Of a stretch of 64,000 nucleotides of DNA, positions 8,419 through 23,570 are shown one piece after another. This stretch comes from an uncultured bacterium (GTDB lineage Bacteria; Muiribacteriota; Ozemobacteria; Ozemobacterales; Ozemobacteraceae). A program made the translations under genes and the position numbers. Position 1 is the stretch's first letter. Each line of letters opens with the position of its first letter. The stretch lies in NCBI GenBank assembly GCA_946407375.1, contig CAMJNS010000004.1:3480-67479 (forward strand). The letters are read 5' to 3'. The notes under the pieces were generated by a model. It did not search any database and was not told the DNA's origin. It worked only from the letters and a program-made list of their open reading frames with translations.

Positions 8419-9316
8419 TTATTTCCAGACTTTAGATTTATGTGACCAAGTTTGATTGAATTGATTATTATTGCTGTTTATAGAATTGACTATTGGTGAG
8501 AGAAAAGATTGTATTGCTGCTATTGTTTCTACTAGAGATATTTGGATAGAAGTCTTTTTCTTTTTTGCAAAGTTATTCCAGCGAGATTGTCTTGTTGATT
8601 CGCTGGCAAAATCAGGCTCAAAAGCAGCAATATCATTTAAAGCAGTATTACGGTAAGAGAAAGTTTTTTTACTGCCTTCAATAAAGTTTTTCCATCAAAG
8701 TCGAACTTAGCAAGAAAGACTATATGTCGTAGAAATCTTTGAAACGACTATTTCCATAACCTAAACTAACTATTGCTTCAAATTTTTCAGCAATGCATGA
8801 ATATATAGAATAAGCATATATATTAGGAACATCGCTATTATGCAAAAGTATCGGGTAATCTATTAATGTTTTGTCTGGGTGTATTACGTCACCAAAAGCA
8901 ATATCTATAGAAATAGGAATCTTGGTTTTATCTAAATAGGCGATAATTGAGATATTTATACCATGATACTTTCTTTGTTCGGTAATACTTTTGATTGTTA
9001 AAGTTTGTAAATTATAAATTAAAGGATCATCTGTTTTTATAGAGAAAATATTTGCAAAAGCAGATTCTATTACAGATATTTGATTACTTATATTTTGGGC
9101 GAGGAAATCAATGTCTGAGGTCGCTCGTGAGAAATTGCCATTTTCTAGTGCATATAGGAATATTCCTCCTTTTAGAATAAAATGCTCTTTGTAAGAAGAA
9201 ATAGTTAATCTGTAAATTGTTCTTTCAATGGCATAAGCAATTAGAAGCTCTTGTAGGGTTTTTCCCGAAGAAATAGATAGATTTTTTAGCTTTTCTTTTA
9301 CCGAAGTAGCATTCAT
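8419..9316 (-). pseudogene. AbiEii/AbiGii-family nucleotidyltransferase toxin, frameshifted
   Basis: ATG at 9316 overlaps the abiEi stop (TAATG). N-part has ILKGGIFLY...ATSDIDFL and stops at 8720 (..RFKDFYDI*). The expected C-terminal ~100 aa (VFLAKFDFDGKTLLKAVKKTFSYRNTA...WSHKSKVWK*) continues in another frame from 8720 to 8419. Confidence 0.7.
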
Positions 9317-9903
9317 TATAGCAACACCTCTAGATAGGTATTTATAATATTTTTGCAATTGAGTAGGTTTGCATAACGATAGAGCTTATTCAAATTACGT
9401 TTTGGAGATGCTAGATAATTTTTTAGAATTTCTTTGGTTTCTTCTATTCCTATTTTATTTCGATAGAAAATTATATCTATGACTGTTTTTTCAATATCAT
9501 AAACGTGAATTTCCTGGTTGGAATTAGTAATTGTCGTTATTCCTGTTTCAAATCTTTTTGGGGAAAAATATGTAATGTTTATAGGTGGCCAATCTGGGAG
9601 TTTAGATGTTTTGTGTGTTCTCTCTATTGCTATGTTAATTTCGTTTGGTCGTGTGGTTGTAAGATCATAATAGATTGCTGCACTGATAAGGCAGATAACG
9701 CCATTAGGAACGATAGCTGACGCATAGGCAAAGTCTGAATCTTCACCTAGATAGTTATTATTTATGTATAGGCTAGTATTAAGTTTAGACAATTTACCTT
9801 CAGCAATAAGCTTATGAGTTAGATAATTTGAGATAGATAGGTTTCTTAGCTCTTTTGTGGTATAGAATTTCTTCTTGTTAGAAAGCAAATTGTTGATATT
9901 CAT
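9316..9903 (-). CDS. AbiEi-family antitoxin/transcriptional regulator (type IV TA)
   Basis: 195 aa; N-terminal wHTH-like segment (YTTKELRNLSISNYLTHKLIAEGKLSKL); position and coupling upstream of AbiEii. Confidence 0.6.
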   Translation of the reverse strand: MNINNLLSNKKKFYTTKELRNLSISNYLTHKLIAEGKLSKLNTSLYINNNYLGEDSDFAYASAIVPNGVICLISAAIYYDLTTTRPNEINIAIERTHKTSKLPDWPPINITYFSPKRFETGITTITNSNQEIHVYDIEKTVIDIIFYRNKIGIEETKEILKNYLASPKRNLNKLYRYANLLNCKNIINTYLEVLL

Positions 9904-10145: not shown

Positions 10146-10213
10146 AAGCCTGATTGGATTCAGGATTTACTTCGATTGTGCCTTTCTTGCCCTGCTTGAG
10201 TTCTGGCAAGCAA
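10146..10213 (-). repeat. partial copy of nfnB-like 3' end
   Basis: Matches 21081-21148 with 1 visible mismatch; preceded by the same J-motif junction (..CTACAATAAAAACTAAAAAAT|AAGCCTGATTGG) as the copy at 8361. Confidence 0.85.
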
Positions 10214-10424
10214 GATAGATATATTTGATGAAGATGTTACAAAAGGAGTTGTTAAGAGTTTAAACTTTATTATTCCATCAGTTGAATATAAGGGAGGAAC
10301 AAGCAATTTTTTTGCTGCTCGTTGTATTGACATAGACAGAGACGGAATTACAGAATTAGTATTTGAAGGTGATTATGATAATGAAACAACAAAAAACTCT
10401 GCTATTATCGTAAAATTGAAATAA
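10200..10424 (+). pseudogene. orphan 3' gene fragment (DxDxDG-loop containing), no start codon
   Basis: Open frame from an in-frame TGA (10197) to TAA (10422-10424): ..IDIFDEDVTKGVVKSLNFIIPSVEYKGGTSNFFAARCIDIDRDGITELVFEGDYDNETTKNSAIIVKLK*. No ATG/GTG/TTG. Followed by a terminator. Confidence 0.3.
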
Positions 10425-11089: not shown

Positions 11090-11479
11090 CGTCATTGCGA
11101 GCAGTCGTAAGACTGCGTGGCAATCCAGATATTTACTATTTCAAATTATAGAATTTTCCAATATAAATCTACCCAATTAGGATTTAGGCTTTCGATAAGT
11201 TTCAATTTATATTTTCTTGATCTAGCTTTAATTTGTTTTTCTCGTTCAATGGCATTATTGATATTGTCGTATTCCTCAAAATAACCTAACTTATCGACAG
11301 AATATTTTTTAGTAAAACCTTCATATAGTTTATTTTTATGTTCATAGACTCTACGTATTAAATCAGAAGTTGCTCCTGTATAAAGAGTTCCATTTCTTTT
11401 ACTGAACAAGATGTAAATATAACTGTTTTTATTCATATTATTTTTATCTAGATTGCCACGCCTTCGGCTCGCAATGACG
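11090..11479. mobile_element. GIY-YIG cassette bounded by inverted hairpin repeats (candidate small mobile unit)
   Basis: Left end CGTCATTGCGAG-CAGTCGTAAGACTG-CGTGGCAATC (11090-11126). Right end GATTGCCACG-CCTTCGG-CTCGCAATGACG (11451-11479), in inverted orientation. The unit sits between the two remnants of one Rpn-like gene. Confidence 0.4.
11146..11436 (-). CDS. GIY-YIG nuclease family protein (small stand-alone, UPF0213/YhbQ-like)
   Basis: 96 aa; SYIYILFSKRNGTLYTGATSDLIRRVYEHK ... EREKQIK. Confidence 0.88.
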   Translation of the reverse strand: MNKNSYIYILFSKRNGTLYTGATSDLIRRVYEHKNKLYEGFTKKYSVDKLGYFEEYDNINNAIEREKQIKARSRKYKLKLIESLNPNWVDLYWKIL

Positions 11480-11482
11480 TTT

Positions 11483-11575
11483 TTAGTTTAAAGTGTTTTT
11501 ATTAGACTCTTGACCAAAAACAGCTTTGAATAGGAAATCATTTGTTAGTCCAAAAAATTTTGTTTCTTTTTCCAT
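11483..11575 (-). pseudogene. N-terminal remnant of the Rpn-family nuclease gene
   Basis: MEKETKFFGLTNDFLFKAVFGQESNKNTLN* matches the conserved Rpn N-terminus (..TND..FK..FG.E.NK..L); the frame is cut by the hairpin repeat at 11479. Confidence 0.4.
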
Positions 11576-11703
11576 AAGAAAACCTCTTTTGATTAAAAAT
11601 ACGTGCATAAAATTTTAATCTGCACATATAGTAATCAACCGAAAACGGAAAAATGGACAAAAAAAGTGTAAAAAAATAATTTTTTTTGTTGTGGTTGTTT
11701 TTA

Positions 11704-11898
11704 GTAAATAAAACCTATGAAAATTTTTGGGATTGCCACGTTACTACGCATACTACGTATGCTTGTAATGACATATGGCTTGCGGTTTCACAATGACGGT
11801 TACGGTAGAGACTAAGGTTTTCTTTGATTCGGTCATCCCTCCGACTTGCTACGCAAGTCACCTCAGCGACTCGCTGACCTCCTGTCGCTCGCTTGCAC
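11704..11898 (+). repeat. ~195-bp direct repeat, copy 1 (copy 2 at 20381-20573)
   Basis: Copies differ only by a 2-nt indel and one substitution that I can see; the repeat contains a GATTGCCACG hairpin module plus further short hairpins. Confidence 0.9.
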
Positions 11899-11952
11899 TC
11901 CCAACCTCCTGTTGGTCGTCTAATCTCTTATCTCTGCTCTCTTTAAAAACTG

Positions 11953-11987
11953 GATTGCCACGGCTTCTACGAAGCCTAGCAATGACG
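11953..11987 (+). repeat. hairpin repeat element (GATTGCCACG-GCTTCTACGAAGC-CTAGCAATGACG)
   Basis: Conserved ends with an element-specific inner 5-6 bp stem. Confidence 0.8.
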
Positions 11988-12096: not shown

Positions 12097-12320
<224 letters not shown>

Positions 12321-12349
12321 TTGAAGAGGAAAAGTTGAGGTAAGTATTT

Positions 12350-15034
12350 ATGTCTGATTTGTCTGTTTTTTATATATTAGATCTTTCTGAAAGTATGAAA
12401 GGTGAAAAACTTGATATACTTAATCATACTGTTGAAGAATGTAACGAAACCTTATTAGAATTAGCAAATGAAAAGAACGCTGAATTAAAAGTGGCAATGA
12501 TGACATTCTCAGATGGCTGTGACTGGATAACTCCACACGGACCAGAACCTATAGAAGATTTTGCTTTTAATTATTTTCAAAATACAAGTGGCTTGAGTAA
12601 TCTAGGTATTGCATTATATGAATTAAATAAAAATATTACAGACATAAATTTTTATAATATTTCTTCAAAAGATTACTTACCAGTAATAATTATTATAACA
12701 GATAAAGACAATATAGATAATTATGAAAACATTCTAAAATTTGTTAAAACAAATAATATTTATGAAAACTCTATAAAAATAGCTTATACCATAGGCAACA
12801 ATCAAAATACAGAATTATTATCTTATATTACAGATAATAAAAATTCAATAATTACTAAAAGCAATGAGAATTTTAGGGAAATTATTAAAATATTTGGAAA
12901 AACTACAAGTCAAAATAATAAAGAAATAATAAAAAATCAAATAAGAAAATTAATTCAAAAAAAGCAGTATGAAGAAGCAAAAGAATTAACCAAAGAATTA
13001 GGTAACGAAAAAGAATCTTATGAAAATGTAATTCTTGGTTGTATGTATATTGTTGGCAAAGGTGTGGAAAAGAATTACGAAGAAGCAGTTAAATATGCCA
13101 AGTTAAGTGCTGAACAAGGAAACCCTCTAGGACAATGCTTGCTGGGGCAATGTTATTATTTTGGTAATGGTGTGGAACAAAATTATGAAGAAGCTTTTAA
13201 ATACTTCAAGTTAAGTGCTGAACAAGGAGATTCAGCAGGACAAATGCGGTTAGGAATTTATTATCTTTATGATAATGGGATAGAACAAAATTACGAAGAA
13301 GCTTTTAAATATTTCAAGTTAAGTGCTGACCAAGGAGATTCAGATGGACAATGGGCTCTTGCTAAATATTATTATGAGAACAGTGTGAAACAGAATTACG
13401 ATGAAGCTTTTAAATATGCCAAGTTAAGTGCTGAACAAGGAAACCCTCTAGGACAATGCTTGCTGGGGCAATGTTATTATTTTGGTAATGGTGTGGAACA
13501 AAATTATGAAGAAGCTTTTAAATACTTCAAGTTAAGTGCTGAACAAGGAGATTCAGATGGACAATGGGTTCTTGCTGAATATTATTATGGTAACAGTGTG
13601 AAACAGAATTACGAAGAAGCAGTTAAATATGCCAAGTTAAGTGCTGAACAAGGTAATTCAAATGCACAATGTTTGTTGGGGAAATGTTATTATTTCGGTA
13701 ATGGTGTAGAGCAAAATTACGAAGAAGCTGTTAAATATTTCAAATTAAGTGCTGACCAAGGTAATTCAAATGCACAATGGGCTCTTGCTGAATATTATTA
13801 TGGTAATGATGTGGAACAAAATTATGAAGAAGCTTTTAAATATGCCAAGTTAAGTGCTGAACAAGAGAATTCTCATGGGCAATGCTTGTTGGGGCAATGT
13901 TATTTATTTAGTAATAGTACAGAACAGAATTACGAGGAAGCTTTTAAATTATTCAAGTTAAGTGCTGAACAAGGAGATTCAGATGGACAAAAGTGGTTAG
14001 GTATTTGTTATCTTAATGGAATTGGTATAAAACAGAATTACGAAGAAGCTTTTAAAAATTTCAAGTTAAGTGCAGAAAAAGAAAATGCTCACGGGCAATG
14101 CTTGTTAGGGCAATGTTATTATTATGGGAATGGTGTAAAACAGAATTACGAGGAAGCTTTTAAATATTTCAAGTTAAGTGCAGAAAAAGGACACGCTCAC
14201 GGACAATGCATGTTGGGACAATGTTATTATTATGGTAATGGTGTTGAAAAGAATTACGAAGAAGCCTTTAAATATTTTAAGTTAAGTGCGGAACAAGGAG
14301 ATTCAGATGGACAAAAGTGGTTAGGAATCTGTTATTATGATGGTGATGGTGTAGAAAAGAATTATGAAGAAGCTTTTAAATATGCCAAGTTAAGTGCTGA
14401 ACAAGGGAATTCTCATGGGCAATGCTTGTTGGGGCTATGTTATTCTTTTGGTAATGGTGTAAAACAGAATTATGAAGAAGCTTTTAAATACTTCAAATTA
14501 AGTGCTGACCAAGGGAATAAACTAGGACAACGTTATGTTGGATTCTTATGTTACTATTATGGACAAGGCATTAAAGCAAATAATGAGGAAGCTTTTAAGT
14601 ATATGAAGTTAAGTGCTGACCAAGGGGATAGCTTTTCACAATATTGGATTGGATCAAATTATTATGATGGTTTTAATGTTAAACAAAATTTTGAAGAAGC
14701 TTTTAAATACTTAAAACTCAGTGCTGACCAAGGAGAAAATCTAGCGCAATATAATCTTGGTAAGATGTATTATAATGGCGATGGAATACCTAAAAATTAC
14801 AAAGAAGCATTTAAATATATGAAGTTAAGCGCTGACCAAGGTAATGCTGATGGACAATATGAAGTTGGAAAAATGTATTTAGATGGCATAGGTGTAAAAA
14901 GAAACCAGGAAGAAGGAATAAGATACATTAAATTAAGTGCAGATCAAGGTAATTTAACAGCAAAAGGGTATTTGATAAGATCAAATATAACCAAGGGTTT
15001 CTTAAATGCAATTGGTAATATTTTTAAAAAATGA
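12350..15034 (+). CDS. vWA domain protein fused to ~18 Sel1-like (SLR) repeats
   Basis: 894 aa. N-terminal vWA with MIDAS DxSxS (FYILDLSESMKG) and a VIIIITD strand. From ~aa 205, an array of 35-36-aa units (NYEEAFKYFKLSAEQGDSDGQ..LG.CYY.GNGVEQ). Confidence 0.85.
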   Translation: MSDLSVFYILDLSESMKGEKLDILNHTVEECNETLLELANEKNAELKVAMMTFSDGCDWITPHGPEPIEDFAFNYFQNTSGLSNLGIALYELNKNITDINFYNISSKDYLPVIIIITDKDNIDNYENILKFVKTNNIYENSIKIAYTIGNNQNTELLSYITDNKNSIITKSNENFREIIKIFGKTTSQNNKEIIKNQIRKLIQKKQYEEAKELTKELGNEKESYENVILGCMYIVGKGVEKNYEEAVKYAKLSAEQGNPLGQCLLGQCYYFGNGVEQNYEEAFKYFKLSAEQGDSAGQMRLGIYYLYDNGIEQNYEEAFKYFKLSADQGDSDGQWALAKYYYENSVKQNYDEAFKYAKLSAEQGNPLGQCLLGQCYYFGNGVEQNYEEAFKYFKLSAEQGDSDGQWVLAEYYYGNSVKQNYEEAVKYAKLSAEQGNSNAQCLLGKCYYFGNGVEQNYEEAVKYFKLSADQGNSNAQWALAEYYYGNDVEQNYEEAFKYAKLSAEQENSHGQCLLGQCYLFSNSTEQNYEEAFKLFKLSAEQGDSDGQKWLGICYLNGIGIKQNYEEAFKNFKLSAEKENAHGQCLLGQCYYYGNGVKQNYEEAFKYFKLSAEKGHAHGQCMLGQCYYYGNGVEKNYEEAFKYFKLSAEQGDSDGQKWLGICYYDGDGVEKNYEEAFKYAKLSAEQGNSHGQCLLGLCYSFGNGVKQNYEEAFKYFKLSADQGNKLGQRYVGFLCYYYGQGIKANNEEAFKYMKLSADQGDSFSQYWIGSNYYDGFNVKQNFEEAFKYLKLSADQGENLAQYNLGKMYYNGDGIPKNYKEAFKYMKLSADQGNADGQYEVGKMYLDGIGVKRNQEEGIRYIKLSADQGNLTAKGYLIRSNITKGFLNAIGNIFKK

Positions 15035-15071
15035 GTTTTATTAATTTGTTTTTTCATTAAGGATATATGAT

Positions 15072-18000
15072 ATGGCAAACGACTTAGTTAAACAAAATAA
15101 ACTTATAGATAATTTAAATAAAATAGCATACACCATAGATAAAGCATATATGGCAAAATTAGATTCTGAGTATGCAGTTATACCTTTTGATGTTTTACAC
15201 AATAATAAAGATAATAGTGTTTCCTATAAACATAATATTAGAGCCTTAAAAATAGACAAGTGGGTTTTTGATAGAGATGAAAACCCTGGCAAATGTTTTA
15301 AAAACGTATTAAATGCCTTTGCAGATGGTGATCATACATTAGCACTTGTAGTAAAAAGAACTCCAACAGAAACACAAATGTATTTTGTTGTTAAAAATGA
15401 AGGCGAAGGTAGAGCATTAACTACTAAAACCAATCTTAATCTGCTAGAAGATACTATTACTGGCAATTTTCAGGGAACAAAAGCAGAAAAAATAATTAAT
15501 GAAAATAAATTAGAAGATATTTTTTCTTTTGAAAAAAACATTAGTTCTATTGCCTTAATGACTAATACTCCATCAGAATATACAGAAGATTATATCGGTC
15601 AAGGTATAGACAAGCTTTTAAATGGCGTAGTTCCAGAAAATGAATTTGAAAGTTATACTGTTGTTTTTCTTGCTGAATCCTTATCTCCAGAAAGTTTAAT
15701 GCAAATATTGTCTGGTTATGAAGAAATGGCTACAGCTATAAGCCCATTTGAACAACAACAATTTCAAATAGGAAAATCGACAACTTCTACAAAAGGAGAA
15801 AGCTATTCTGAAACTATTGGTGAAATGACTTCTTTAACCAATTCAGAAAGTACTAGTGATTCTATTTCTAAGACACATTCTGTAAATATAGGTTTAAACG
15901 GTGGAATTAATTATGGTAATACTGAGAATCGCTCATTAAATTTAAGTAAAATTTGTGATGATATTAAAGATAATTGGGAAAAAAATAAAAGTAAAGGTTG
16001 GAAAACAGCTGTTATATCTGTAGCAGGAAGTGGTTTGATAACAGCTGTTATCAATAGTTTTAGTACAAATGTTGGTTTATCTGGTGGTTACGGATATAGC
16101 TGGGGTAATACAAAAACTGACACAACAGGTGTATCTAAAACCGTTGGCAACAACAATAGTGAGACAACAGGAACAAGCACTAGCCTTGCATTAGGAGAAA
16201 GCGAAAACACTACTTTTTCATATAAAAATTATAAAATAAGCAATATGCTTGAAAAGCTTAAACTTACAATGGACCGAATAAACAAAAGCAAGGCAACAGG
16301 CTTATGGAAGTTTTCCACTTATATTATGTCTGAAAAAGCTAAAACAACAAAAAATATAGCCAATATTTTAAAAGGCATTACCCAAGGGAAAAATTCATAT
16401 ATAGAACCTGCTTTTATTCAAGAATGGACAAATTTAAATCCTAAAAAAGAGATTTTTTCGGAAATAAGAAAATATTTACATTTTTTTACTCATCCTGTTT
16501 TCTTTACTGCAGACCAGGAACTGAATAACGCAATGGCTGTAACGCCAACTTCTTTTGTTGCTACAGACGAATTATCAAATGTTATAGTTTTCCCTAAAAA
16601 ATCATTACAAGGATTGCCTGTTTTGCAGGGAACACAATTTGGTCGAGAACCTCATTCTTTATTAGATGCAAAATACGATTTGCTTTTAGGAAAAGGTTAT
16701 CATATGCATCAAACTTATCAAAAGCAAGAAATTTCTATTTCTTCAAATGATCTGCTTAACCACACTTTTGTTACAGGCTCAACTGGTGCTGGTAAATCTA
16801 ATGCTATTTATCAACTTTTGGAACAAACAACAAAATTAGGAGTTCATTTCCTTGTTATAGAACCAGCTAAGGGGGAATATAAAAGCTTTTTCGGTAAAAG
16901 AGATGATGTAAAAGTTTTTGGAACAAACCCCTTATTAAAAGATATTCAATTATTAAGAATAAATCCGTTCAGTTTCCCTATAGAAAATACTCATATTTTG
17001 GAACATTTAGACAGACTTGTAGAAATATTCAATGTTTGCTGGCCTATGTATGCTGCGATGCCTGCTGTTTTAAAAGATGCCATAGAACAGGCTTACATAA
17101 ATGCTGGTTGGGATTTGACCAAATCTGAAAATAAATATGACAACAGAATTTTCCCGACATTTGCAGATGTTTTGAAAGAAATAAAAAATGTAATGAATAA
17201 TAGCGAATACTCTGATGAAAATAAGGGTAATTATTCTGGAGCATTACAAACGAGATTGAAATCTCTTACTAACGGTATAAACGGTCAGATATTCTCAAAT
17301 GATTCTATTTCTGATGAAGAATTATTCGATAAAAATGTAATAATAGATTTAAGCAGAGTTGGCTCTACAGAAACAAAAGCTTTAATAATGGGACTTTTGA
17401 TTTTGAAACTACAAGAACACAGAATGGCTAGTCCTGAAATTAACTCTGAATTAAAACATATTACTGTTATTGAAGAAGCTCATAATCTATTGAAGAGAAC
17501 ATCTACAGAGCAGGTTTCCGAAAGTTCAAATCTTTTAGGAAAATCTGTAGAAATGCTTGCAAACGCAATAGCAGAAATGAGAACTTATGGTGAGGCTTTT
17601 GTTATTGCTGATCAGTCACCAGGATTACTTGATATGTCTGTAATCAGAAATACCAATACAAAAATAATATTAAGACTTCCTGATTATTCTGACAGAGAGT
17701 TAGTAGGAAGAGCTGCTGGCCTTAACGAAGAACAGATAATTGAACTTGGAAGACTTGAAAAAGGTGTAGCAGTAATTAGACAGAATGATTGGCTTGAACC
17801 TGTTTTGTGCAAAATTGATAAATTTAATGAAAGCAAATATTCCAATAATAATAAATCTAACAATAGTTTTAATCTGTCTAATGATAGCATTAATGAATCT
17901 GTATCTAAAGCTCTTGTGGAAGCTATAATGACAGGTAAAATCAATAATATTGAAGAAAACGTATATGAGCTTAATGAATTAAAAGAACTTATAATAAAAT

Positions 18001-18323
18001 CAAATCTTGAGACTGCTATAAAATGTGAATTTATTAATTGTCTTTTAATAAAAGACCACAATTTATCTGCTTTAACAACTCTTTGTTATGACTTTTTTCA
18101 TGCTTCAAAAGCGGTAGAATTAGCAAAAAAATGTGGCAATATTGAAAGTTGGAGTCAGTGCTTAACTTCAAATCTTGTTCCGAATGTAGAAAGTTATAAT
18201 AATGAGCAAATAAACAGATTGTTAGCTTTAATTGTTATTGAAATCAAAAACAGAGACCCTTTTTACAATAAACTCTTTTGTCGATTTACTGAGGTTTATA
18301 AAGAAAGGGGTAGTATTTTATAA
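15072..18323 (+). CDS. large HerA/FtsK-superfamily (DUF87-like) P-loop ATPase with novel N-terminal region and one hydrophobic helix
   Basis: 1083 aa. Walker A FVTGSTGAGKSN, Walker B HITVIEEAHNLL, FVIADQSPGLLD and NTNTKIILRLP. S/T/G/N-rich segments (aa ~230-390) flank TAVISVAGSGLITAVINSF. Confidence 0.75.
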   Translation: MANDLVKQNKLIDNLNKIAYTIDKAYMAKLDSEYAVIPFDVLHNNKDNSVSYKHNIRALKIDKWVFDRDENPGKCFKNVLNAFADGDHTLALVVKRTPTETQMYFVVKNEGEGRALTTKTNLNLLEDTITGNFQGTKAEKIINENKLEDIFSFEKNISSIALMTNTPSEYTEDYIGQGIDKLLNGVVPENEFESYTVVFLAESLSPESLMQILSGYEEMATAISPFEQQQFQIGKSTTSTKGESYSETIGEMTSLTNSESTSDSISKTHSVNIGLNGGINYGNTENRSLNLSKICDDIKDNWEKNKSKGWKTAVISVAGSGLITAVINSFSTNVGLSGGYGYSWGNTKTDTTGVSKTVGNNNSETTGTSTSLALGESENTTFSYKNYKISNMLEKLKLTMDRINKSKATGLWKFSTYIMSEKAKTTKNIANILKGITQGKNSYIEPAFIQEWTNLNPKKEIFSEIRKYLHFFTHPVFFTADQELNNAMAVTPTSFVATDELSNVIVFPKKSLQGLPVLQGTQFGREPHSLLDAKYDLLLGKGYHMHQTYQKQEISISSNDLLNHTFVTGSTGAGKSNAIYQLLEQTTKLGVHFLVIEPAKGEYKSFFGKRDDVKVFGTNPLLKDIQLLRINPFSFPIENTHILEHLDRLVEIFNVCWPMYAAMPAVLKDAIEQAYINAGWDLTKSENKYDNRIFPTFADVLKEIKNVMNNSEYSDENKGNYSGALQTRLKSLTNGINGQIFSNDSISDEELFDKNVIIDLSRVGSTETKALIMGLLILKLQEHRMASPEINSELKHITVIEEAHNLLKRTSTEQVSESSNLLGKSVEMLANAIAEMRTYGEAFVIADQSPGLLDMSVIRNTNTKIILRLPDYSDRELVGRAAGLNEEQIIELGRLEKGVAVIRQNDWLEPVLCKIDKFNESKYSNNNKSNNSFNLSNDSINESVSKALVEAIMTGKINNIEENVYELNELKELIIKSNLETAIKCEFINCLLIKDHNLSALTTLCYDFFHASKAVELAKKCGNIESWSQCLTSNLVPNVESYNNEQINRLLALIVIEIKNRDPFYNKLFCRFTEVYKERGSIL

Positions 18324-18988
18324 TGTTTGAAAGTATTGGTAAAATAGTAGAAGTAGCTGAGACAGCAGCAAAAGAAGTTGCTGCTAATGTTGAAAAGATT
18401 GTTCCCGAAAGTGGTATTAGTCTAAAAGAAGCTGATGAATACTGGAACAAGTTTTTTGCTCCTAAAAACAATATAGAAAAGAAATCTACTGATAGTTTCT
18501 CTAATAACTATTATGATGATAACAATGAAGTTTATCGAAAAGGTAATGATTTGGTTCCCAATCATGATTATGAAATAAACGGATACAAATATCATACTGA
18601 TGAAATTGGTAGAATATCTTCGGCAGAGGGTAATTTACATTTAAAAGATAGAGAGGGGCGTCTTCCAATAAAAGATTCTATTGAAAACATTGGGAAAGGC
18701 TATGAATTACCTAATGATGATAGAGGGCATCTTATTGCCGACCAGTTTGGCGGCTCTAATGGCTTAGAAAATCTGATTCCACAAGATGCAGAAGTAAATA
18801 GAAAAGATTTTATGAATTTTGAAAACAAACTTGCTAATGAAGTTAAGAATGGTAATGAAGTTTATATAAAAAATGAGCCTAATTATGAAGGTAATTCTAG
18901 AAGACCAAGTGAATTTATTGTAACTTATTCTGTGAATGGCACTGAAAATATAAGGATTTTCCCAAATGGCAAGGAGATTAATAAATGA
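18323..18988 (+). CDS. DNA/RNA non-specific endonuclease toxin (Endonuclease_NS_2 type, EsaD/YeeF/YqcG-like) with short helical N-terminal region
   Basis: 221 aa; NDDRGHLIADQFGGSNGLENLIPQDAEVNRKDF motif; start overlaps the ATPase stop (TAATG at 18321-18325). Confidence 0.7.
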   Translation: MFESIGKIVEVAETAAKEVAANVEKIVPESGISLKEADEYWNKFFAPKNNIEKKSTDSFSNNYYDDNNEVYRKGNDLVPNHDYEINGYKYHTDEIGRISSAEGNLHLKDREGRLPIKDSIENIGKGYELPNDDRGHLIADQFGGSNGLENLIPQDAEVNRKDFMNFENKLANEVKNGNEVYIKNEPNYEGNSRRPSEFIVTYSVNGTENIRIFPNGKEINK

Positions 18989-19314
18989 AAAATATAATGA
19001 ACGAAGAAATATACCAAAAAATATGCGATATTTTAGTTAATGTGTTGCCTGAAAAATGGGAAAATATAGTTTTTAAAGCCGAATATGGTGAAGAAAGCTA
19101 TGAAATGAAATATTGGGTCGATTCAGGAAATGGAGAGCTTAAAGACTGTTTTGAGTTAGCTGTTGTTCCCAAATCACAGATGGTGAAAACTTTTATAGCT
19201 TTAAATAAAGTTATTGCACCAGAACGAAATGCATTAGAACCAAAGCACAAATGGAAAATAATGACACTAAAGGTTTCTTCAAAAGGGAAATTCAACGCTG
19301 ATTTTGAATATTAA
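18985..19314 (+). CDS. cognate immunity protein, DUF600 (EsaG/YezG)-like
   Basis: 109 aa; ATGA overlap with the toxin stop; AAGGAG RBS. The size and the WENIVF..EYGEESYEMKYWV...KWKIMTLKVSSKGKFNADFEY pattern resemble DUF600 immunity proteins. Confidence 0.55.
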   Translation: MKNIMNEEIYQKICDILVNVLPEKWENIVFKAEYGEESYEMKYWVDSGNGELKDCFELAVVPKSQMVKTFIALNKVIAPERNALEPKHKWKIMTLKVSSKGKFNADFEY

Positions 19315-19358
19315 ATGTGTTGTTAGAATAGAAAATATTTATTAGGAGAGCAAAATAT

Positions 19359-19796
19359 TTGAAAGTATATTTGGATAATTGTTGTTTCAATAGACCTTAT
19401 GATGACCAATCTTATATCAAAATATCATTAGAATCAAAAGCCAAGCTTTATATACAGAATTTAATAAGAAAGAAGAAAATAGATTTAGTTTCTTCATACA
19501 TGATTCTATATGAAAATGGTCTAAATCCATTTTCTATGAGGAAAAATCCAATAAAAGAATTTATCAATAAAAACACATCTCTTTTTATTCCTTATGAAAA
19601 ACATGTTATAATTGAAGAAATGGCATTAGAAATAATGAATACAGGAATAAAATATAAAGATGCCTGTCATGTCGCTTGTAGTTTGTTAGGACAATGTTCT
19701 TATTTTATTACTACAGATAATAGGTTACTTAAATACAAAAATAGTAATCTCAAACCGATTAATCCTATTGATTTTGTAAGAAATTTGGAGGAATAA
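19359..19796 (+). CDS. PIN-domain ribonuclease toxin
   Basis: 145 aa; TTG start with AGGAG RBS. Acidic residues are placed as in PIN (VYLDNCCF, ..EE.., KDACHVA, ITTDNRLL). Confidence 0.65.
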   Translation: MKVYLDNCCFNRPYDDQSYIKISLESKAKLYIQNLIRKKKIDLVSSYMILYENGLNPFSMRKNPIKEFINKNTSLFIPYEKHVIIEEMALEIMNTGIKYKDACHVACSLLGQCSYFITTDNRLLKYKNSNLKPINPIDFVRNLEE

Positions 19797-19797
19797 A

Positions 19798-20031
19798 ATG
19801 GAAGCTAATACTGTTGAAATTATGAATAAAGGTATGAAATGCTTACTTGATAATCTAGGAATAGTAGAAGCAGAATATTTTATTTCTACTGTTATTAGGG
19901 AAAAATTTGATTACACTAAGTGGCAACAAGAGTATTTTGATAAAATTCCACCAAATGAATTAAATGAGAAATTAGCTGATTTTGCTAAAAATTACAAATT
20001 TGAGGGCAATCCAGAAGTATTACTCAAATAA
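19798..20031 (+). CDS. small partner protein of the PIN toxin (putative antitoxin, downstream position)
   Basis: 77 aa; starts 1 nt after the PIN stop; LGIVEAEYFISTVIREKFDYTKWQQEYF pattern recalled from small proteins paired with this PIN subfamily. Confidence 0.4.
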   Translation: MEANTVEIMNKGMKCLLDNLGIVEAEYFISTVIREKFDYTKWQQEYFDKIPPNELNEKLADFAKNYKFEGNPEVLLK

Positions 20032-20194
20032 TTTTTTATTATCTAGATTGCCACGGCGTTTTCAACGCCTCGCAATTGACGCATGACAGAGACCAAGGGT
20101 TTACTCTAGTTCGGTCACCCTCCCTTTTATTACTTCCCTCAAGGGAGGGCTTATGACAATCACACCAACCACAGCCTACGCCAGTAAAACCAAA

Positions 20195-20223
20195 AGACAC
20201 TTGCGAGTAGCAAGTGTCTTTTT
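20195..20223 (+). terminator. hairpin terminator within the mosaic
   Basis: AGACACTTGC-GAGTA-GCAAGTGTCT-TTTT; variant copy at 20654-20683. Confidence 0.5.
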
Positions 20224-20342
20224 AAGATTAAACCTAAGTTATAAAAATCCCCCAGTCACCGATTGCTTCGCAATCACCCCTCCTCAAGGAGAGGCTTTAG
20301 GACAATAAAAACCACAAAAACCAACTACAATAAAAACAAAAA

Positions 20343-20371
20343 AGCGGTTAGATTAATGCTAACCGCTTTTT
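20343..20371. terminator. hairpin terminator after boundary motif J5
   Basis: AGCGGTTAG-ATTAATG-CTAACCGCT-TTTTT. Confidence 0.55.
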
Positions 20372-20380
20372 CTCTTCTAA

Positions 20381-20573
20381 GTAAATAACCTATGAAAATT
20401 TTTGGGATTGCCACGTTACTACGCATACTACGTATGCTCGTAATGACATATGGCTTGCGGTTTCACAATGACGGTTACGGTAGAGACTAAGGTTTTCTTT
20501 GATTCGGTCATCCCTCCGACTTGCTACGCAAGTCACCTCAGCGACTCGCTGACCTCCTGTCGCTCGCTTGCAC
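20381..20573 (+). repeat. ~195-bp direct repeat, copy 2
   Basis: See 11704-11898. Confidence 0.9.
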
Positions 20574-20653
20574 GCCGCCATCCTTGGCGGTAGCCCTCTA
20601 GTGGAGGCTTTAGGACAATCACACCAACAACACATAAAATCAATAAAAATAAA

Positions 20654-20952: not shown

Positions 20953-22440
20953 TTATTTCAAGTATTTTTCCTTGAGGTATTTATCCATACCAGCGGCGGC
21001 TCGGCGGCCGTCACCCATGGCAAGAATTACTGTAGCGCCACCGCGAACGATGTCGCCACCAGCGAAGATTTCTTCCATAGAAGCCTGATTGGATTCAGGA
21101 TTTACTTCGATTGTGCCTTTCTTGCCCTGTTTGAGTTCTGGCAAGCAAGAAGGAATCAATGGATTTGGAGAAACGCCGATAGCAACTACTACTATATCTA
21201 CGTCTAGTTCTTCGATTGCGCCTGGGATTTCTACTGGTCTGCGTCTGCCAGAAGCATCTGGTTCACCCAATTCCATCTTCTGCAAGCGAACTTTGGCAAC
21301 TCTGCCGTTTTCGCCAGCGATGTATTCGATTGGGTTGTGAAGAGTCATAAATTCAACGCCTTCTTCTTCAGCGTGTTTGACTTCTTCAAGACGGGCTGGC
21401 ATTTCATCTCTAGAACGTCTGTAAACGATGATTGATCTATCAGCACCAAGTCTCTTAGAGGTTCTTACAGAGTCCATAGCGGTGTTACCACCACCAACGA
21501 CTACAACAACTTTGCCTTTAAGAACTGGAGTGTCAGTGTCTTCACGGTTAGCACCCATGAGGTTTACACGAGTGAGGTATTCGTTAGAAGACATAACGCC
21601 GTTGAGGTTTTCACCAGGAATATTCATGAAGTTCGGGAAACCTGCACCAGAACCAACATAGAAAGCCTTGAAGCCCTGAGCCTTCAAATCATCAAATGTA
21701 GCGGTTTTTCCAACAACGAAGTTCTTTTCGAACTTAACGCCCATCTTAGAAAGGTTGGCAAGTTCCAAATCTACGATTGAGTTTGGAAGACGGAATTCAG
21801 GAATACCATATTTGAGAACGCCGCCGATTTCGTGGAGAGCTTCGAATACAGTTACATCATAACCAGCTTTTGCCATATCGCCAGCAAAAGAGAGTGCTGA
21901 TGGACCTGAACCAACTGCGGCAACCTTGATGCCGTTTTTCTTTTCCATTTTTGGAAGTTTGGGTTCGATGCCGTTTAAGCGTTCATAGTCAGCAGCAAAT
22001 CTTTCAAGATAGCCAATAGCTACAGCTGGTTTCTTCATCTTGAGGTAAGTGCACTTGGATTCGCATTGTTTTTCCTGTGGGCAAACACGACCGCAAACTG
22101 CTGGAAGAGCACTGAATTCTTTTAATGTTGCAGCAGCTTCTTCAAATTCGCCGCGTTCAATGTTTTTAACAAACTTTGGAATGTTAATGCCTACTGGACA
22201 ACCTTCAGTGCAAGGGTGATTGGGGCAATCCATACAGCGGGTTGCTTCTAATACAGCCTGTTCTTTGGTTAAACCAGTGTTAACTTCGATAGTCTGTGAT
22301 TTAATGCGTTCTGCTGGAGCGATTTCGTTCATCTTCACTCTTTCAATAGCAGTGCGTTCTTTCATCGGAGTCTTGTTGCGGAGTTCTTCTCTCCAGGTTT
22401 CTTCTCTGTCTTTTGCAAAAATATCATTCATATCTGACAT
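20953..22440 (-). CDS. nfnB: NADPH-dependent glutamate synthase small-chain family oxidoreductase (NfnB/SudA-type; often annotated gltA/gltD)
   Basis: Two Cys clusters (CMDCPNHPCTEGCPVGINIP; CGRVCPQEKQCESKC). Two dinucleotide folds (VAAVGSGPSALSFAGD; VVVVGGGNTAMD). I prefer ATG at 22440 (MSDMNDIF..), 20 nt after the nfnA stop, over the ORF-track start at 22503. Confidence 0.85.
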   Translation of the reverse strand: MSDMNDIFAKDREETWREELRNKTPMKERTAIERVKMNEIAPAERIKSQTIEVNTGLTKEQAVLEATRCMDCPNHPCTEGCPVGINIPKFVKNIERGEFEEAAATLKEFSALPAVCGRVCPQEKQCESKCTYLKMKKPAVAIGYLERFAADYERLNGIEPKLPKMEKKNGIKVAAVGSGPSALSFAGDMAKAGYDVTVFEALHEIGGVLKYGIPEFRLPNSIVDLELANLSKMGVKFEKNFVVGKTATFDDLKAQGFKAFYVGSGAGFPNFMNIPGENLNGVMSSNEYLTRVNLMGANREDTDTPVLKGKVVVVVGGGNTAMDSVRTSKRLGADRSIIVYRRSRDEMPARLEEVKHAEEEGVEFMTLHNPIEYIAGENGRVAKVRLQKMELGEPDASGRRRPVEIPGAIEELDVDIVVVAIGVSPNPLIPSCLPELKQGKKGTIEVNPESNQASMEEIFAGGDIVRGGATVILAMGDGRRAAAGMDKYLKEKYLK

Positions 22441-22460
22441 AATTTTATTCTCGCTTTCTA

Positions 22461-23273
22461 TTAGAGTTTTGCCTTGGCTTCGTCTTCTTCTGCTTTGTAG
22501 CATCTTAAGCGAGAAAGCATTTCGTCAAAGTCGATCTGGTGAGCGTCAAATTCTGGACCGTCAACGCATGTGAATTTGGTCTTTCCGCCAACGGTAACAC
22601 GACAAGCACCGCACATACCTGTTCCATCAACCATAATAGTGTTAAGGCTGCACTGAGTTGGAACGTTGTATTCTTTAGTCTTGAGGGCTGCAAACTTCAT
22701 CATGATTGCAGGACCGATAGCGATACATTCATCAACTTTTTCGCGCTTCATGACCATTTCAGCACCAACAGTAACATTACCCTTATTACCATAAGAACCG
22801 TCGTCAGTCATTATTATAACTTCATCAGAGTATTTGCGAAGTTCATCTTCAAGAATGATGAGGCTTTTGGTTCTAGCGGCAAGAACAGTGATAACTCTGT
22901 TGCCAGCTTCTTTGAAGCCTCTGACTATTGGAAGCAATGGAGCGTTGCCAACACCGCCGCCAAGAGCCAAGAAAGTGCCGACTTTCTTGATATCAGTTGG
23001 TTTGCCAAGTGGGCCAACCAAGTCAGTTAAACAATCTCCAACTTTCATATCGCAGAATTTAGTGGAAGAATAACCAACTTTTTGAGCGATGAGCATAATT
23101 GTGCCTTTTTCTTTGTCGGTATCGACGATGGTAAGAGGCATTCTTTCGCCCTTTTCGCTGATTCTTAGAATGATGAAATTCCCTGGCTTGTGTGACTTAG
23201 CAATCAAGGGAGCTTCAACGATGAACTTGAAAACGTTTTCTGAAAGCTGTTCTTTTTCAACTATTTTATACAT
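22461..23273 (-). CDS. nfnA: sulfide/dihydroorotate dehydrogenase-like FAD/NAD-binding subunit (NfnA/SudB, PyrK-like)
   Basis: 270 aa; C-terminal 2Fe-2S motif DGTGMCGACRVTVGGKTKFTCVDGPEF; adjacent to nfnB. Confidence 0.85.
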   Translation of the reverse strand: MYKIVEKEQLSENVFKFIVEAPLIAKSHKPGNFIILRISEKGERMPLTIVDTDKEKGTIMLIAQKVGYSSTKFCDMKVGDCLTDLVGPLGKPTDIKKVGTFLALGGGVGNAPLLPIVRGFKEAGNRVITVLAARTKSLIILEDELRKYSDEVIIMTDDGSYGNKGNVTVGAEMVMKREKVDECIAIGPAIMMKFAALKTKEYNVPTQCSLNTIMVDGTGMCGACRVTVGGKTKFTCVDGPEFDAHQIDFDEMLSRLRCYKAEEDEAKAKL

Positions 23274-23471: not shown

Positions 23472-23570
23472 GATTGCCACGCCACCGACTGTTACACAGT
23501 CAGCCCCCTCAGTCACTTCGTGACAGCTCCCCCACAATTCGTTGGGGAGCATCTGAGACTCGCAATGACG
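23472..23570 (+). repeat. hairpin-bundle repeat element (conserved ends enclosing three short hairpins)
   Basis: GATTGCCACG..GACTGttacaCAGTC..GTCACttcGTGAC..CTCCCCAcaattcgtTGGGGAG..CTCGCAATGACG. Confidence 0.8.

Follow-up and report, generated by a model that had tools for sequence, protein, structure and literature searches.

A string of six genes, g1 to g6, starts at position 12350 of a 64,000-nucleotide stretch of DNA from an uncultured bacterium of the family Ozemobacteraceae (contig CAMJNS010000004.1, positions 3,480 to 67,479; the term window is used here for this whole stretch). The first four, all on the plus strand in the list of open reading frames (ORFs), encode proteins of 894, 1083, 221 and 109 amino acids (aa). 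Together, g2, g3 and g4 appear to form one copy of a widespread conflict module whose conserved system would comprise an ATPase, one or more leader-tagged effectors, an immunity protein and a partner that can be exchanged. A rare variant of this module, with a vWA-Sel1 protein, g1, as the partner, was acquired by the diderm host of the window. The features of the four genes are the following.

12350-15034, plus strand: g1, vWA-like domain and Sel1 repeats, 894 aa (ORF; Pfam)
12350-12859, plus strand: N-terminal vWA-like domain of g1, with the DxSxS motif DLSES at aa 11-15 (12380-12394)
13007-14965, plus strand: Sel1 array of g1, period about 36 aa (108 nt) (Pfam Sel1)
15072-18323, plus strand: g2, ATPase of the HerA/FtsK/VirB4 superfamily with a family-specific N-terminal half, 1083 aa (Pfam; Foldseek)
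15159-15746, plus strand: N-terminal alpha/beta domain of g2, aa 30-225 (AlphaFold2 (AF2) blocks at a predicted local distance difference test score (pLDDT) of 60-84)
15750-16235, plus strand: Ser/Thr/Gly/Asn-rich region of g2, aa 227-388 (AF2 pLDDT 21-29, unmodelled)
16674-17876, plus strand: P-loop ATPase domain of g2, aa 535-935, with Walker A at 16776-16802 and Walker B at 17457-17483
17883-18311, plus strand: C-terminal all-helical domain of g2, aa 938-1080 (AF2 helices at pLDDT 80-89; no Pfam match)
18323-18988, plus strand: g3, effector made of a leader and an Endonuclease_NS_2 nuclease (EsaD/YeeF-type, beta-beta-alpha-Me), 221 aa (ORF; Pfam)
18335-18460, plus strand: leader of g3, aa 5-46 (...KEVAANVEKIVPESGISLKEADEYWNKFF) (leader hidden Markov model, HMM)
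18557-18937, plus strand: Endonuclease_NS_2 domain of g3, aa 79-205 (PF13930)
18985-19314, plus strand: g4, YezG/DUF600-type immunity protein, 109 aa (Pfam PF04634)

The coupling of the four genes is exactly as the initial annotation had given it: 37 nt separate g1 from g2, the stop codon of g2 and the start codon of g3 have one base in common (TAATG), and g3 and g4 overlap by 4 nt (ATGA). The promoter that it placed at 12293-12349 did not hold up, as this site is not among the sigma-70-like sites returned by a scan, and the number of such sites between 12000 and 20400 (41, against 41.6 expected in shuffled sequence) is not above chance. A hairpin scan found no terminator-like site on the plus strand from 12350 to 20031. 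All six genes recur in the same order on a second contig, locus L088, with protein identities of 71-89% (89% for the ATPase, 71% for g1). Given this recurrence, and the order of ATPase, effector and immunity genes in about 75 of 80 unrelated loci, the arrangement is not due to chance.

The assignment of g2 to the HerA/FtsK-type P-loop ATPases is well founded. Residues 549-776 match the DUF87/HerA central domain (PF01935, E 3.9e-14, 53.7 bits against a cutoff of 23.2) and also TrwB_AAD_bind, and the Walker A motif (G569-S-T-G-x-G-K-S-N577), the Walker B motif (T798-V-x-E-E-A-H804) and the D847, Q848 and P850 of the DQxP motif are invariant in 26 homologues. Matches to NCBIfam models, all below cutoff, are to CedD (a DNA-translocating ATPase and the best match, E 1.3e-28), to HerA and to ser_rich_anae_1, the last of which shows only that curators had noticed a related serine-rich ATPase. 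Foldseek matches the AF2 model of g2 to HerA (4d2i, E 3e-11), VirB4 (4ag6), DndH-C (7es4) and SIR2-HerA (8wiv), and also to TdpA and TrwB; a PDB match of HerA 4d2i covers aa 552-919. The model itself (mean pLDDT 62) has five parts, the four listed above and a second alpha/beta domain at aa 390-495. The N-terminal region had been described as novel, and so it is in the searches made: neither the N-terminal nor the middle domain has a relative in PDB profile searches (no match at E <= 5 for the N-terminal domain) or in Pfam, and the N-terminal domain carries many residues that are invariant in the family, for example D85-G-D-H88 and A201-E-S203.

Between these two domains, the Ser/Thr-rich region contains the invariant blocks SVFKTHSVNxGxNG, GYGYSWG and GTSSSISxGxSENTxYTYKSY, which in homologues flank a glycine-zipper block, GGxxGGxxGGPxGAxxG; g2 of the window has WKTAVISVAGSGLITAVINSF there. 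At the glycine-zipper position lies the most hydrophobic 19-residue Kyte-Doolittle (KD) window of g2 (aa 312-330, 16005-16061), and it is this segment that the initial annotation had read as a hydrophobic helix. With a score of 1.58 it is marginal, but it falls below the threshold of 1.6 applied here to 19-residue windows and is not a conserved transmembrane (TM) helix, and most ATPases of the family have no segment that reaches 1.6; a clear TM helix in g2 is not supported. The segment could be a membrane-active element, and the Ser/Thr-rich region could be structured only in an oligomer or a membrane. The products of g1, g3 and g4 likewise have no clear TM segment, those of g3 and g4 being judged small and hydrophilic rather than scored separately.

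Downstream of the ATPase, g3 and g4 are bona fide members of the EsaD/YeeF and EsaG/YezG families, as first proposed. The nuclease domain of g3 matches PF13930 with E 3.5e-31 (108.6 bits, cutoff 27), and its D133-R-G-H136, N150 and N159 (18719-18799) are intact and align with those of 20 other NS_2 effectors; no signal peptide or known trafficking domain was detected in g3 (Pfam). The match of g4 to the YezG-like family PF04634 has E 3.3e-9 (37.5 bits, cutoff 21.7), and its match to NCBIfam TIGR01741 is below the cutoff of that model. Each NS_2-type effector examined in related loci precedes either a g4 homologue or a protein of about 120 aa.

Absent from the initial annotation was the conserved leader on the toxin, an acidic segment of about 45 aa with the pattern ..E(I/V)...PE..N(F/Y)K.IKPE.GMT..EA..FW...F that stands ahead of all toxin domain types in the family. 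An HMM of this leader, seeded with 38 other effectors and with g3 left out, matches aa 5-46 of g3 with E 4.5e-8; among the 1667 ORFs of all loci, it matches only the N-termini of proteins encoded immediately 3' of the ATPase. The leader has no match in Pfam even at E <= 10. Judged from these sequences, it would tie the toxin to the ATPase. A homotypic adaptor, that is a domain common to effector and NTPase, was considered and rejected, as the leader HMM matches no ATPase, GTPase or Sel1 protein; fusions of effector and ATPase were also sought, and there are none among the long members of the family.

Relatives of g2 are numerous and widely distributed. A word-indexed search gave 248 matches, most of them at 50-57% identity and from metagenome-assembled genomes (MAGs) of Clostridia, and a pattern scan of one genome per species placed relatives in the genomes of at least 586 species. 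A search with just the N-terminal half (540 aa) returned 695 clusters (50% identity) with E <= 1e-3, 456 with E <= 1e-10 and 89 with E <= 1e-30, and since these relatives are nearly all 1000-1250 aa long, the architecture appears to be fixed. The taxa include Lachnospiraceae, Ruminococcus, several Streptococcus species, Carnobacterium and Bifidobacterium ruminantium, together with Treponema and other spirochaetes, Selenomonadaceae, Thermoguttaceae and one Alistipes MAG. Copies on plasmids occur in Lactococcus cremoris, a Bacillus species, Exiguobacterium and one enterotoxigenic Escherichia coli (ETEC) strain. The last of these, locus L086, is a complete dynamin-type copy on the IncI conjugative plasmid of E. 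coli TW10590 (NZ_CP035852.1, 49932-58331), with two dynamin-family genes, a hypothetical gene, the ATPase, an HNH/ENDO VII nuclease gene and an SMI1/KNR4 immunity gene; such a copy was present in 1 of 5426 complete E. coli genomes. A phage origin of the module was rejected, with only 9 loci in 2.9 million viral contigs and two unannotated 'Bacteriophage sp.' contigs.

The neighbourhood of the ATPase was sampled by calling ORFs in 85 loci and clustering the neighbours, which left 81 loci with usable context. In 77 of these the ATPase gene is directly followed by a gene for a 150-340 aa protein and then by one for a 95-150 aa protein, the stop codon of the ATPase and the start codon of the effector typically overlapping by 1-4 nt (some loci have 28 or 46 nt instead). 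For about 75 of 80 loci the sizes of the two proteins are 190-290 and 95-150 aa. Pfam assigns the first downstream proteins (n=73) to Colicin-DNase/WHH (24), Endonuclea_NS_2 (21), LHH (9), Ntox15 (1) and HNH (1), and a further group of 13 looks HNH-like by eye; the second downstream proteins (n=63) belong to SUKH families (15), YezG-like (15), DUF6985 (12) and Tdi1_C (1). By family membership, the two downstream genes are thus predicted to be toxin and immunity pairs, and the suggestion in the initial annotation that the ATPase might keep company with variable pairs of this kind is borne out. Twelve loci encode a second leader-bearing protein of about 230 aa with weak matches to DUF6782, SprT-like and Peptidase_M76 metallopeptidases, and with a conserved partner of its own, about 97 aa long and without family match (L016 14124-14822, L024 8397-9382, L034 9071-10066, L043 5554-6529 and eight other loci). 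The leader would therefore tag non-nuclease effectors as well, or possibly a processing peptidase.

Toxin and leader differ in how they are distributed over the family. The toxin types T1-T4 are scattered over all ATPase clades of a neighbour-joining tree and over all partner types, whereas variants that the leader HMM does not match are confined to two ATPase clades, one that includes MAGs of Treponema and other spirochaetes and one of Streptococcus. The leader therefore appears to co-vary with the ATPase, while the toxin/immunity cassette is exchanged freely. Sequence clusters of immunity proteins occurred only at position +2, and no immunity-only (orphan) arrays were seen in the sampled loci.

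The slot 5' of the ATPase is filled by three kinds of module. One or two dynamin-family GTPases (Dynamin_N, about 820-920 aa) occupy it in 65 loci and paired smaller GTPases resembling MMR_HSR1, AIG1 or IIGP in 8, and a Sel1-repeat partner was found in only 4 of the 81 (the window, L023, L035 and L059). Where a small protein is encoded between dynamin and ATPase (clusters 5 and 10), its C-terminus is always a helix of high hydrophobicity (KD 2.5-3.8), so that these proteins look tail-anchored; examples are L001 9577-9969, L002 8885-9334 and L022 8765-9463, and the window operon has no counterpart. At least 17 loci, as well as the plasmid copies of Lactococcus and Bacillus, have a gene for a WYL-domain protein upstream.

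The partner in the window, g1, carries the approximately 18 Sel1 repeats that had been counted by eye: Pfam Sel1 (PF08238) covers 18 stretches with E 2.6e-164 (528 bits), and at the DNA level a repeat family, D1, has 13 registered copies 105-108 nt apart between 13046 and 14959. The intact MIDAS vWA domain claimed for its N-terminus is weakly supported. The DLSES motif is present, but the match to VWA_2 (22.1 bits, E 2.5e-4) is below the cutoff of 27. The homologue P0122 (47% identity, 169 aa) has a precomputed match to PF00092; the AF2 model, of low confidence (pLDDT 51), has beta-alpha-beta topology, and vWA and I-domains rank best when this low-confidence model is compared by Foldseek (E 7e-3 to 0.1, the best 6.7e-3). 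A vWA domain is thus plausible, not proven. No signal-like or TM-like N-terminal segment reaches a KD of 1.6 in g1, and the protein is predicted to be cytoplasmic. At its C-terminal end there is a conserved tail that is amphipathic by eye (ITKGFLNAIGNIFKK).

Homologues of the g1 N-terminal domain are almost absent. Among 5.8 billion proteins there were two matches, one a partial protein 96% identical and the other P0122, and phmmer detected the domain in none of the 80 related loci; g1 would therefore be a lineage-specific replacement in the partner slot. The ATPase of the window is nested in a clade with dynamin and tail-anchored partners, so that the vWA-Sel1 gene looks like a secondary replacement, while the three remaining ATPases with a Sel1 partner group in a clade of their own; Sel1 scaffolds seem to have entered the slot on two occasions. 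The Sel1 partners outside the window have a different N-terminal domain and a C-terminal hydrophobic segment (as in L023 and L059), and one of them matches Pfam TPR-S, 'Tetratricopeptide Repeats-Sensor'. The four genes consequently do not form the conserved unit first envisaged, and linkage of the ATPase to vWA-repeat genes is rare.

No name or description of the module was found in PADLOC v2, NCBIfam or the literature searched, the coverage of which was incomplete, and the initial view that it matches no named system is upheld to that extent. PADLOC v2 gave weak partial HerA and mad8 matches to g2 (<= 65 bits) and nothing for g1, g3 and g4; with the E. coli, Clostridia and Streptococcus homologues included, only weak HerA, mad8, LeoA and LeoBC matches were obtained. 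Judged by gene content, the cluster falls outside the type VII secretion system of the b type (T7SSb), SIR2-HerA, DUF4297-HerA, Eleos, HerA-NurA, vWA-MoxR and TerY-P, each of which is defined by components that it does not have. It shares with T7SSb the Pfam families of EsaD/YeeF and EsaG/YezG and presumably the need for the immunity protein to come off the toxin. The EssC-type ATPase of T7SSb has FHA domains, two TM helices and several FtsK-like ATPase domains, whereas g2 has a single P-loop domain, no FHA domain and no clear TM pair. Pfam, PADLOC and NCBIfam gave no match to WXG100, LXG, EssA/B, EsaA or YukD in the operon, and T7SSb families were absent among the 25 commonest of 156 Pfam families in 144 sampled flanking ORFs of related loci, where rarer ones are possible. 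The leader also differs, being an acidic segment of about 45 aa without a Pfam model, and the present module occurs in diderms with dynamin GTPases or Sel1 proteins as partners.

SIR2-HerA (Nezha) and DUF4297-HerA likewise set a HerA-type hexameric ATPase beside a toxic effector and are structural neighbours of g2, which the HerA models of PADLOC match weakly. Their HerA proteins are about 550-690 aa long, so that g2, with 1083 aa and a unique N-terminal half, is twice as long; the effectors of the present module are leader-bearing polymorphic nucleases with dedicated immunity proteins, with no SIR2 or DUF4297 in the operon (PADLOC), and the module has an additional GTPase or Sel1 partner. Most family members resemble Eleos (LeoA/LeoBC) and DynA in having one or two dynamin-family GTPases upstream, but the similarity of these to the LeoA and LeoBC models of PADLOC reaches only E 1e-6 to 4e-9, genes for a HerA-type ATPase, an effector and an immunity protein are not part of Eleos, and a GTPase is missing altogether from the window copy. 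In vWA-MoxR and TerY-P, too, an NTPase in a conflict context is encoded beside a cytoplasmic vWA-like domain with DxSxS; however, Pfam, PADLOC and NCBIfam detect no MoxR AAA+ protein, PP2C phosphatase or kinase in the operon, the vWA match is below the Pfam threshold and the vWA partner is not conserved in the family. The same three collections give no NurA match in the operon, which separates it from HerA-NurA.

In the layout of its effectors the module resembles polymorphic toxin systems, which in the parts consulted of the survey by Zhang, Aravind et al. (2012, PMC3482391) combine a constant N-terminus with swapped C-terminal toxins (WHH, LHH, Colicin-DNase, NS_2, Ntox15) and adjacent immunity genes (SUKH, DUF600 and others). 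The routes shown there include the type II, type V, type VI and type VII secretion systems (T2SS, T5SS, T6SS and T7SS), PVC and TcdB/TcaC, and the portions returned on querying that survey for HerA, FtsK, GTPase and Sel1 hold no similar ATPase, dynamin or Sel1 context. By its architecture, the module satisfies the definition of a polymorphic toxin system, and export and action on neighbours are conjectural. It differs in that its toxins are very short and have no repeats, releasing peptidase or signal peptide, and in that no orphan cassettes were seen.

In light of these comparisons, the explanation favoured here, at a probability of roughly 0.45, is an intracellular release of the nuclease from its immunity protein that is gated by the ATPase, as in abortive infection. 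The nuclease would be made as an inert complex with the YezG-type immunity protein, and its leader would dock onto the ATPase ring. The partner module (in the window a vWA-Sel1 scaffold in the cytoplasm, in other loci a GTPase of dynamin type or another GTPase of immune type) would perceive a signal, which might be a phage protein or damage to the envelope or the DNA, with a WYL regulator also set over the operon in many relatives. ATP hydrolysis would then pull the effector off the immunity protein by way of the leader, and the freed nuclease would degrade nucleic acid in the producing cell, which would end in growth arrest or abortive infection. What can be read directly in the sequences is the gene content, the translational coupling, the existence of a private leader that co-varies with the ATPase, the shuffling of cassettes and the swapping of partners; the docking of the leader and the ATP-driven separation of effector and immunity protein we infer.

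Several features incline the interpretation towards intracellular release. The partner slot, filled by repeat arrays in some loci and by GTPases of immune type in others, behaves like an exchangeable sensor, and upstream genes for WYL regulators are frequent. The same gene set, without an outer-membrane component, serves monoderms and diderms alike (the diderms being the window host, the E. coli plasmid, Treponema, Thermoguttaceae and Selenomonadaceae). The effectors consist of a leader and a catalytic domain with no receptor-binding or translocation domain, orphan immunity arrays are unseen, and no clear membrane protein is encoded in the window operon. In SIR2-HerA and DUF4297-HerA, effectors are scaffolded and activated by hexamers of HerA. 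Defence genes are also present in the island of the window and in some flanks: Abi_2 and UvrD adjoin L001, and among the flanking genes sampled elsewhere are AbiLi, AriA, a CBASS-type cyclase, DrmMII, type II methyltransferases and several PDC candidates. An enrichment of this kind carries little weight, because the flanks were sampled without a matched background. Of the two models put forward in the initial annotation, both of which are possible, the best explanation is essentially the first, in which sensor and ATPase free the nuclease for abortive infection or defence, generalised to the whole family; the second, a minimal export route in a diderm, is weakened for the window because its operon has no clear TM segment.

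Intracellular release nevertheless has weighty points against it. All effector and immunity families found here are known from secreted interbacterial toxins (EsaD/EsaG, SUKH, Tdi1), whereas to our knowledge an effector that serves defence can normally do without an immunity protein of its own. Shuffled toxin/immunity cassettes behind a constant leader, with two pairs in some loci, are what classically identifies exported polymorphic toxins, and the ATPase superfamily includes pumps for protein and DNA (VirD4, VirB4, EssC). Most family members have the glycine-zipper block in the ATPase and an adjoining tail-anchored protein, which points to a membrane-bound machine. The flanking genes are heterogeneous and only in a minority defence-related, and beyond gene content and linkage the mechanism is a proposal. 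The module may serve anti-phage suicide or the killing of rival bacteria.

A close rival, quite possible if somewhat the less probable account, is accordingly that the module is a new export route for polymorphic antibacterial toxins, with the leader as a secretion signal that the FtsK/HerA-type ATPase would recognise. This ATPase would strip off the immunity protein, as in T7SSb with EsaD/EsaG, and push the toxin across the cytoplasmic membrane, the immunity protein shielding sister cells; the path might be provided by the glycine-zipper/beta-rich segment of the ATPase itself, by the tail-anchored partner or by vesicles made by the dynamin GTPase. Besides the families of its effectors and immunity proteins, which are those of interbacterial toxins, a leader that stays constant amid shuffled toxins and varies along with the ATPase clade is in keeping with an export signal, and the 12 loci with a second leader-bearing effector of the DUF6782/SprT-like type and its own small partner fit as well. 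The ATPase resembles coupling ATPases of the VirB4, TrwB and DotL type as well as HerA, and its Gly-zipper and Ser/Thr-rich block are conserved. Membrane association of the surroundings is suggested by the strong C-terminal TM helix of every small protein between dynamin and ATPase and by the C-terminal hydrophobic segment of the Sel1 partners in L023 and L059. In the parts consulted of a study of ETEC LeoA, dynamins are linked to vesicle-associated toxin release (PMC4159319).

A more elaborate and less likely version would be a previously unrecognised protein-delivery pathway in which a single-ring HerA/FtsK-type ATPase forms its own membrane conduit, built in the hexamer from the Ser/Thr-rich glycine-zipper insert. 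The ring would recognise the leader of about 45 aa, strip the immunity protein and export small polymorphic nucleases and peptidases in monoderms and diderms, and dynamin-type GTPases or Sel1 scaffolds would remodel the membrane for release or cell-to-cell transfer. Export in general has to contend with gene sets that are identical in monoderms and diderms and contain no outer-membrane component, and with ATPases that mostly, in the window as elsewhere, have no segment at KD 1.6. The window operon has neither dynamin nor tail-anchored protein, the effectors have no entry or receptor domain, and the sampled loci hold no orphan immunity arrays. A structural conduit would not usually have one of its parts replaced by unrelated modules, as happens in the partner slot, and WYL regulators are common upstream.

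It is improbable that g2 instead works as a DNA translocase in a machine like HerA-NurA or TdpAB, feeding invading or damaged DNA to the leader-tethered nuclease with the immunity protein as a safety catch. The best NCBIfam match of g2 is indeed the DNA-translocating CedD, below cutoff at E 1.3e-28, its structural neighbours HerA-NurA, TdpAB and DndH-C are DNA-handling partners of nucleases, and more than 75% of the first effectors scanned are nucleases. However, the peptidase-like second effectors bear the same leader, the nucleases are non-specific and toxin-like with tight-binding immunity families rather than of the NurA, Cap4 or REase type, and neither Pfam nor PDB profile searches revealed a domain for binding DNA in g2 beyond its ATPase core. 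Most improbable of all is an addiction or stabilisation module of mobile DNA, in which the toxin/immunity pair would kill cells that lose the island or plasmid while ATPase and partner modulate immunity turnover, since the copies that Lactococcus, E. coli and Bacillus carry on conjugative or large plasmids and the position of the window copy in an inserted segment flanked by duplicated gene ends are outweighed by an ATPase of 1100 aa and a partner of 800-900 aa that far exceed the needs of post-segregational killing, by a majority of chromosomal copies, and by a conserved leader co-varying with the ATPase that would be left unexplained.

The surroundings of the operon in the window bear on how it arrived there. 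The host, which exact-sequence matches identify as a Candidatus Riflebacteria MAG, is evidently a diderm, as LptD is encoded in the window. Three further features flank g1 to g4.

12106-12294, minus strand: displaced copy of the 3' end of an oxidoreductase gene (direct repeats D4, 171 nt, 97%, and D5)
19359-20031, plus strand: g5 (145 aa) and g6 (77 aa), ORFs in the same orientation as g4 and 44 nt beyond it
20192-20222, no strand assigned: first terminator-like hairpin 3' of the gene string, after g6, with A-runs on one side and T-runs on the other

The intact oxidoreductase gene lies at 20953-22503 on the minus strand, its segment 20962-21150 matching the displaced copy, and a third, partial copy of the same 3' end is found at 10146-10215. 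The operon and g5/g6 sit between the displaced copy and the intact gene, and 12106-12294 would be the left edge of the inserted segment that bears the operon. A 190-nt repeat, 99% identical, occurs at 11712-11901 and 20387-20576. Given the duplicated gene ends and this repeat, the site can be regarded as an accretion site for inserted cassettes, and the arrangement looks like a serial insertion of cassettes (AbiE, GIY-YIG and the operon) at the 3' end of one gene. The ORF list and the tRNA and Rfam scans showed no integrase, tRNA or Rfam element at the insertion site. A 10-mer, GATTGCCACG, occurs 9 times against 1.3 expected (11116-11962, 20046-20415, 23472-23481 and 50567-51170); most copies lie in intergenic DNA of the island, and several are part of imperfect hairpins (GATTGCCACG...GCAATGACG), which marks it as a repeat element.

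Two of the island neighbours named at the outset, AbiEii at 8723-9358 and GIY-YIG at 11149-11436, were found again, but the third, a PIN module, was not, as the ORF concerned, g5, has no profile match. The AbiEii-type ORF (212 aa; region 8720-9903) aligns with no more than positions 3-165 of the 238 in the Pfam model and shares 43 nt with an upstream 195-aa ORF; the toxin may be truncated. Both g5 and g6 are probably on the same transcript as g1 to g4. They do not belong to the conserved family, being kept after g4 only in the close relative L088, with no phmmer homologues in the other 80 loci. In Pfam, PADLOC and NCBIfam g5 has no match, and by eye it shows a PIN-like N-terminus (MKVYLDNCCFN) and a TTD motif. 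The two may be a separate toxin-antitoxin pair that rides on the operon transcript.

The module reaches well beyond one MAG, to streptococci of the human mouth and gut, Lachnospiraceae, Treponema, dairy Lactococcus plasmids and an ETEC plasmid. Brought together in it are elements that have mostly been treated separately: a HerA/FtsK pump, immune-type GTPases or repeat scaffolds, and toxin/immunity cassettes with a private leader. If it serves defence, cassettes of interbacterial toxins would have been reused as gated suicide effectors, and the licensing of a toxin by an ATPase would take a new form; if it serves export, it would be a new secretion route. The copies on E. coli and Lactococcus plasmids make the module directly testable, that of E. 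coli being a convenient experimental model, and under either reading the leader provides a simple sequence handle by which the effectors of the module may be found.

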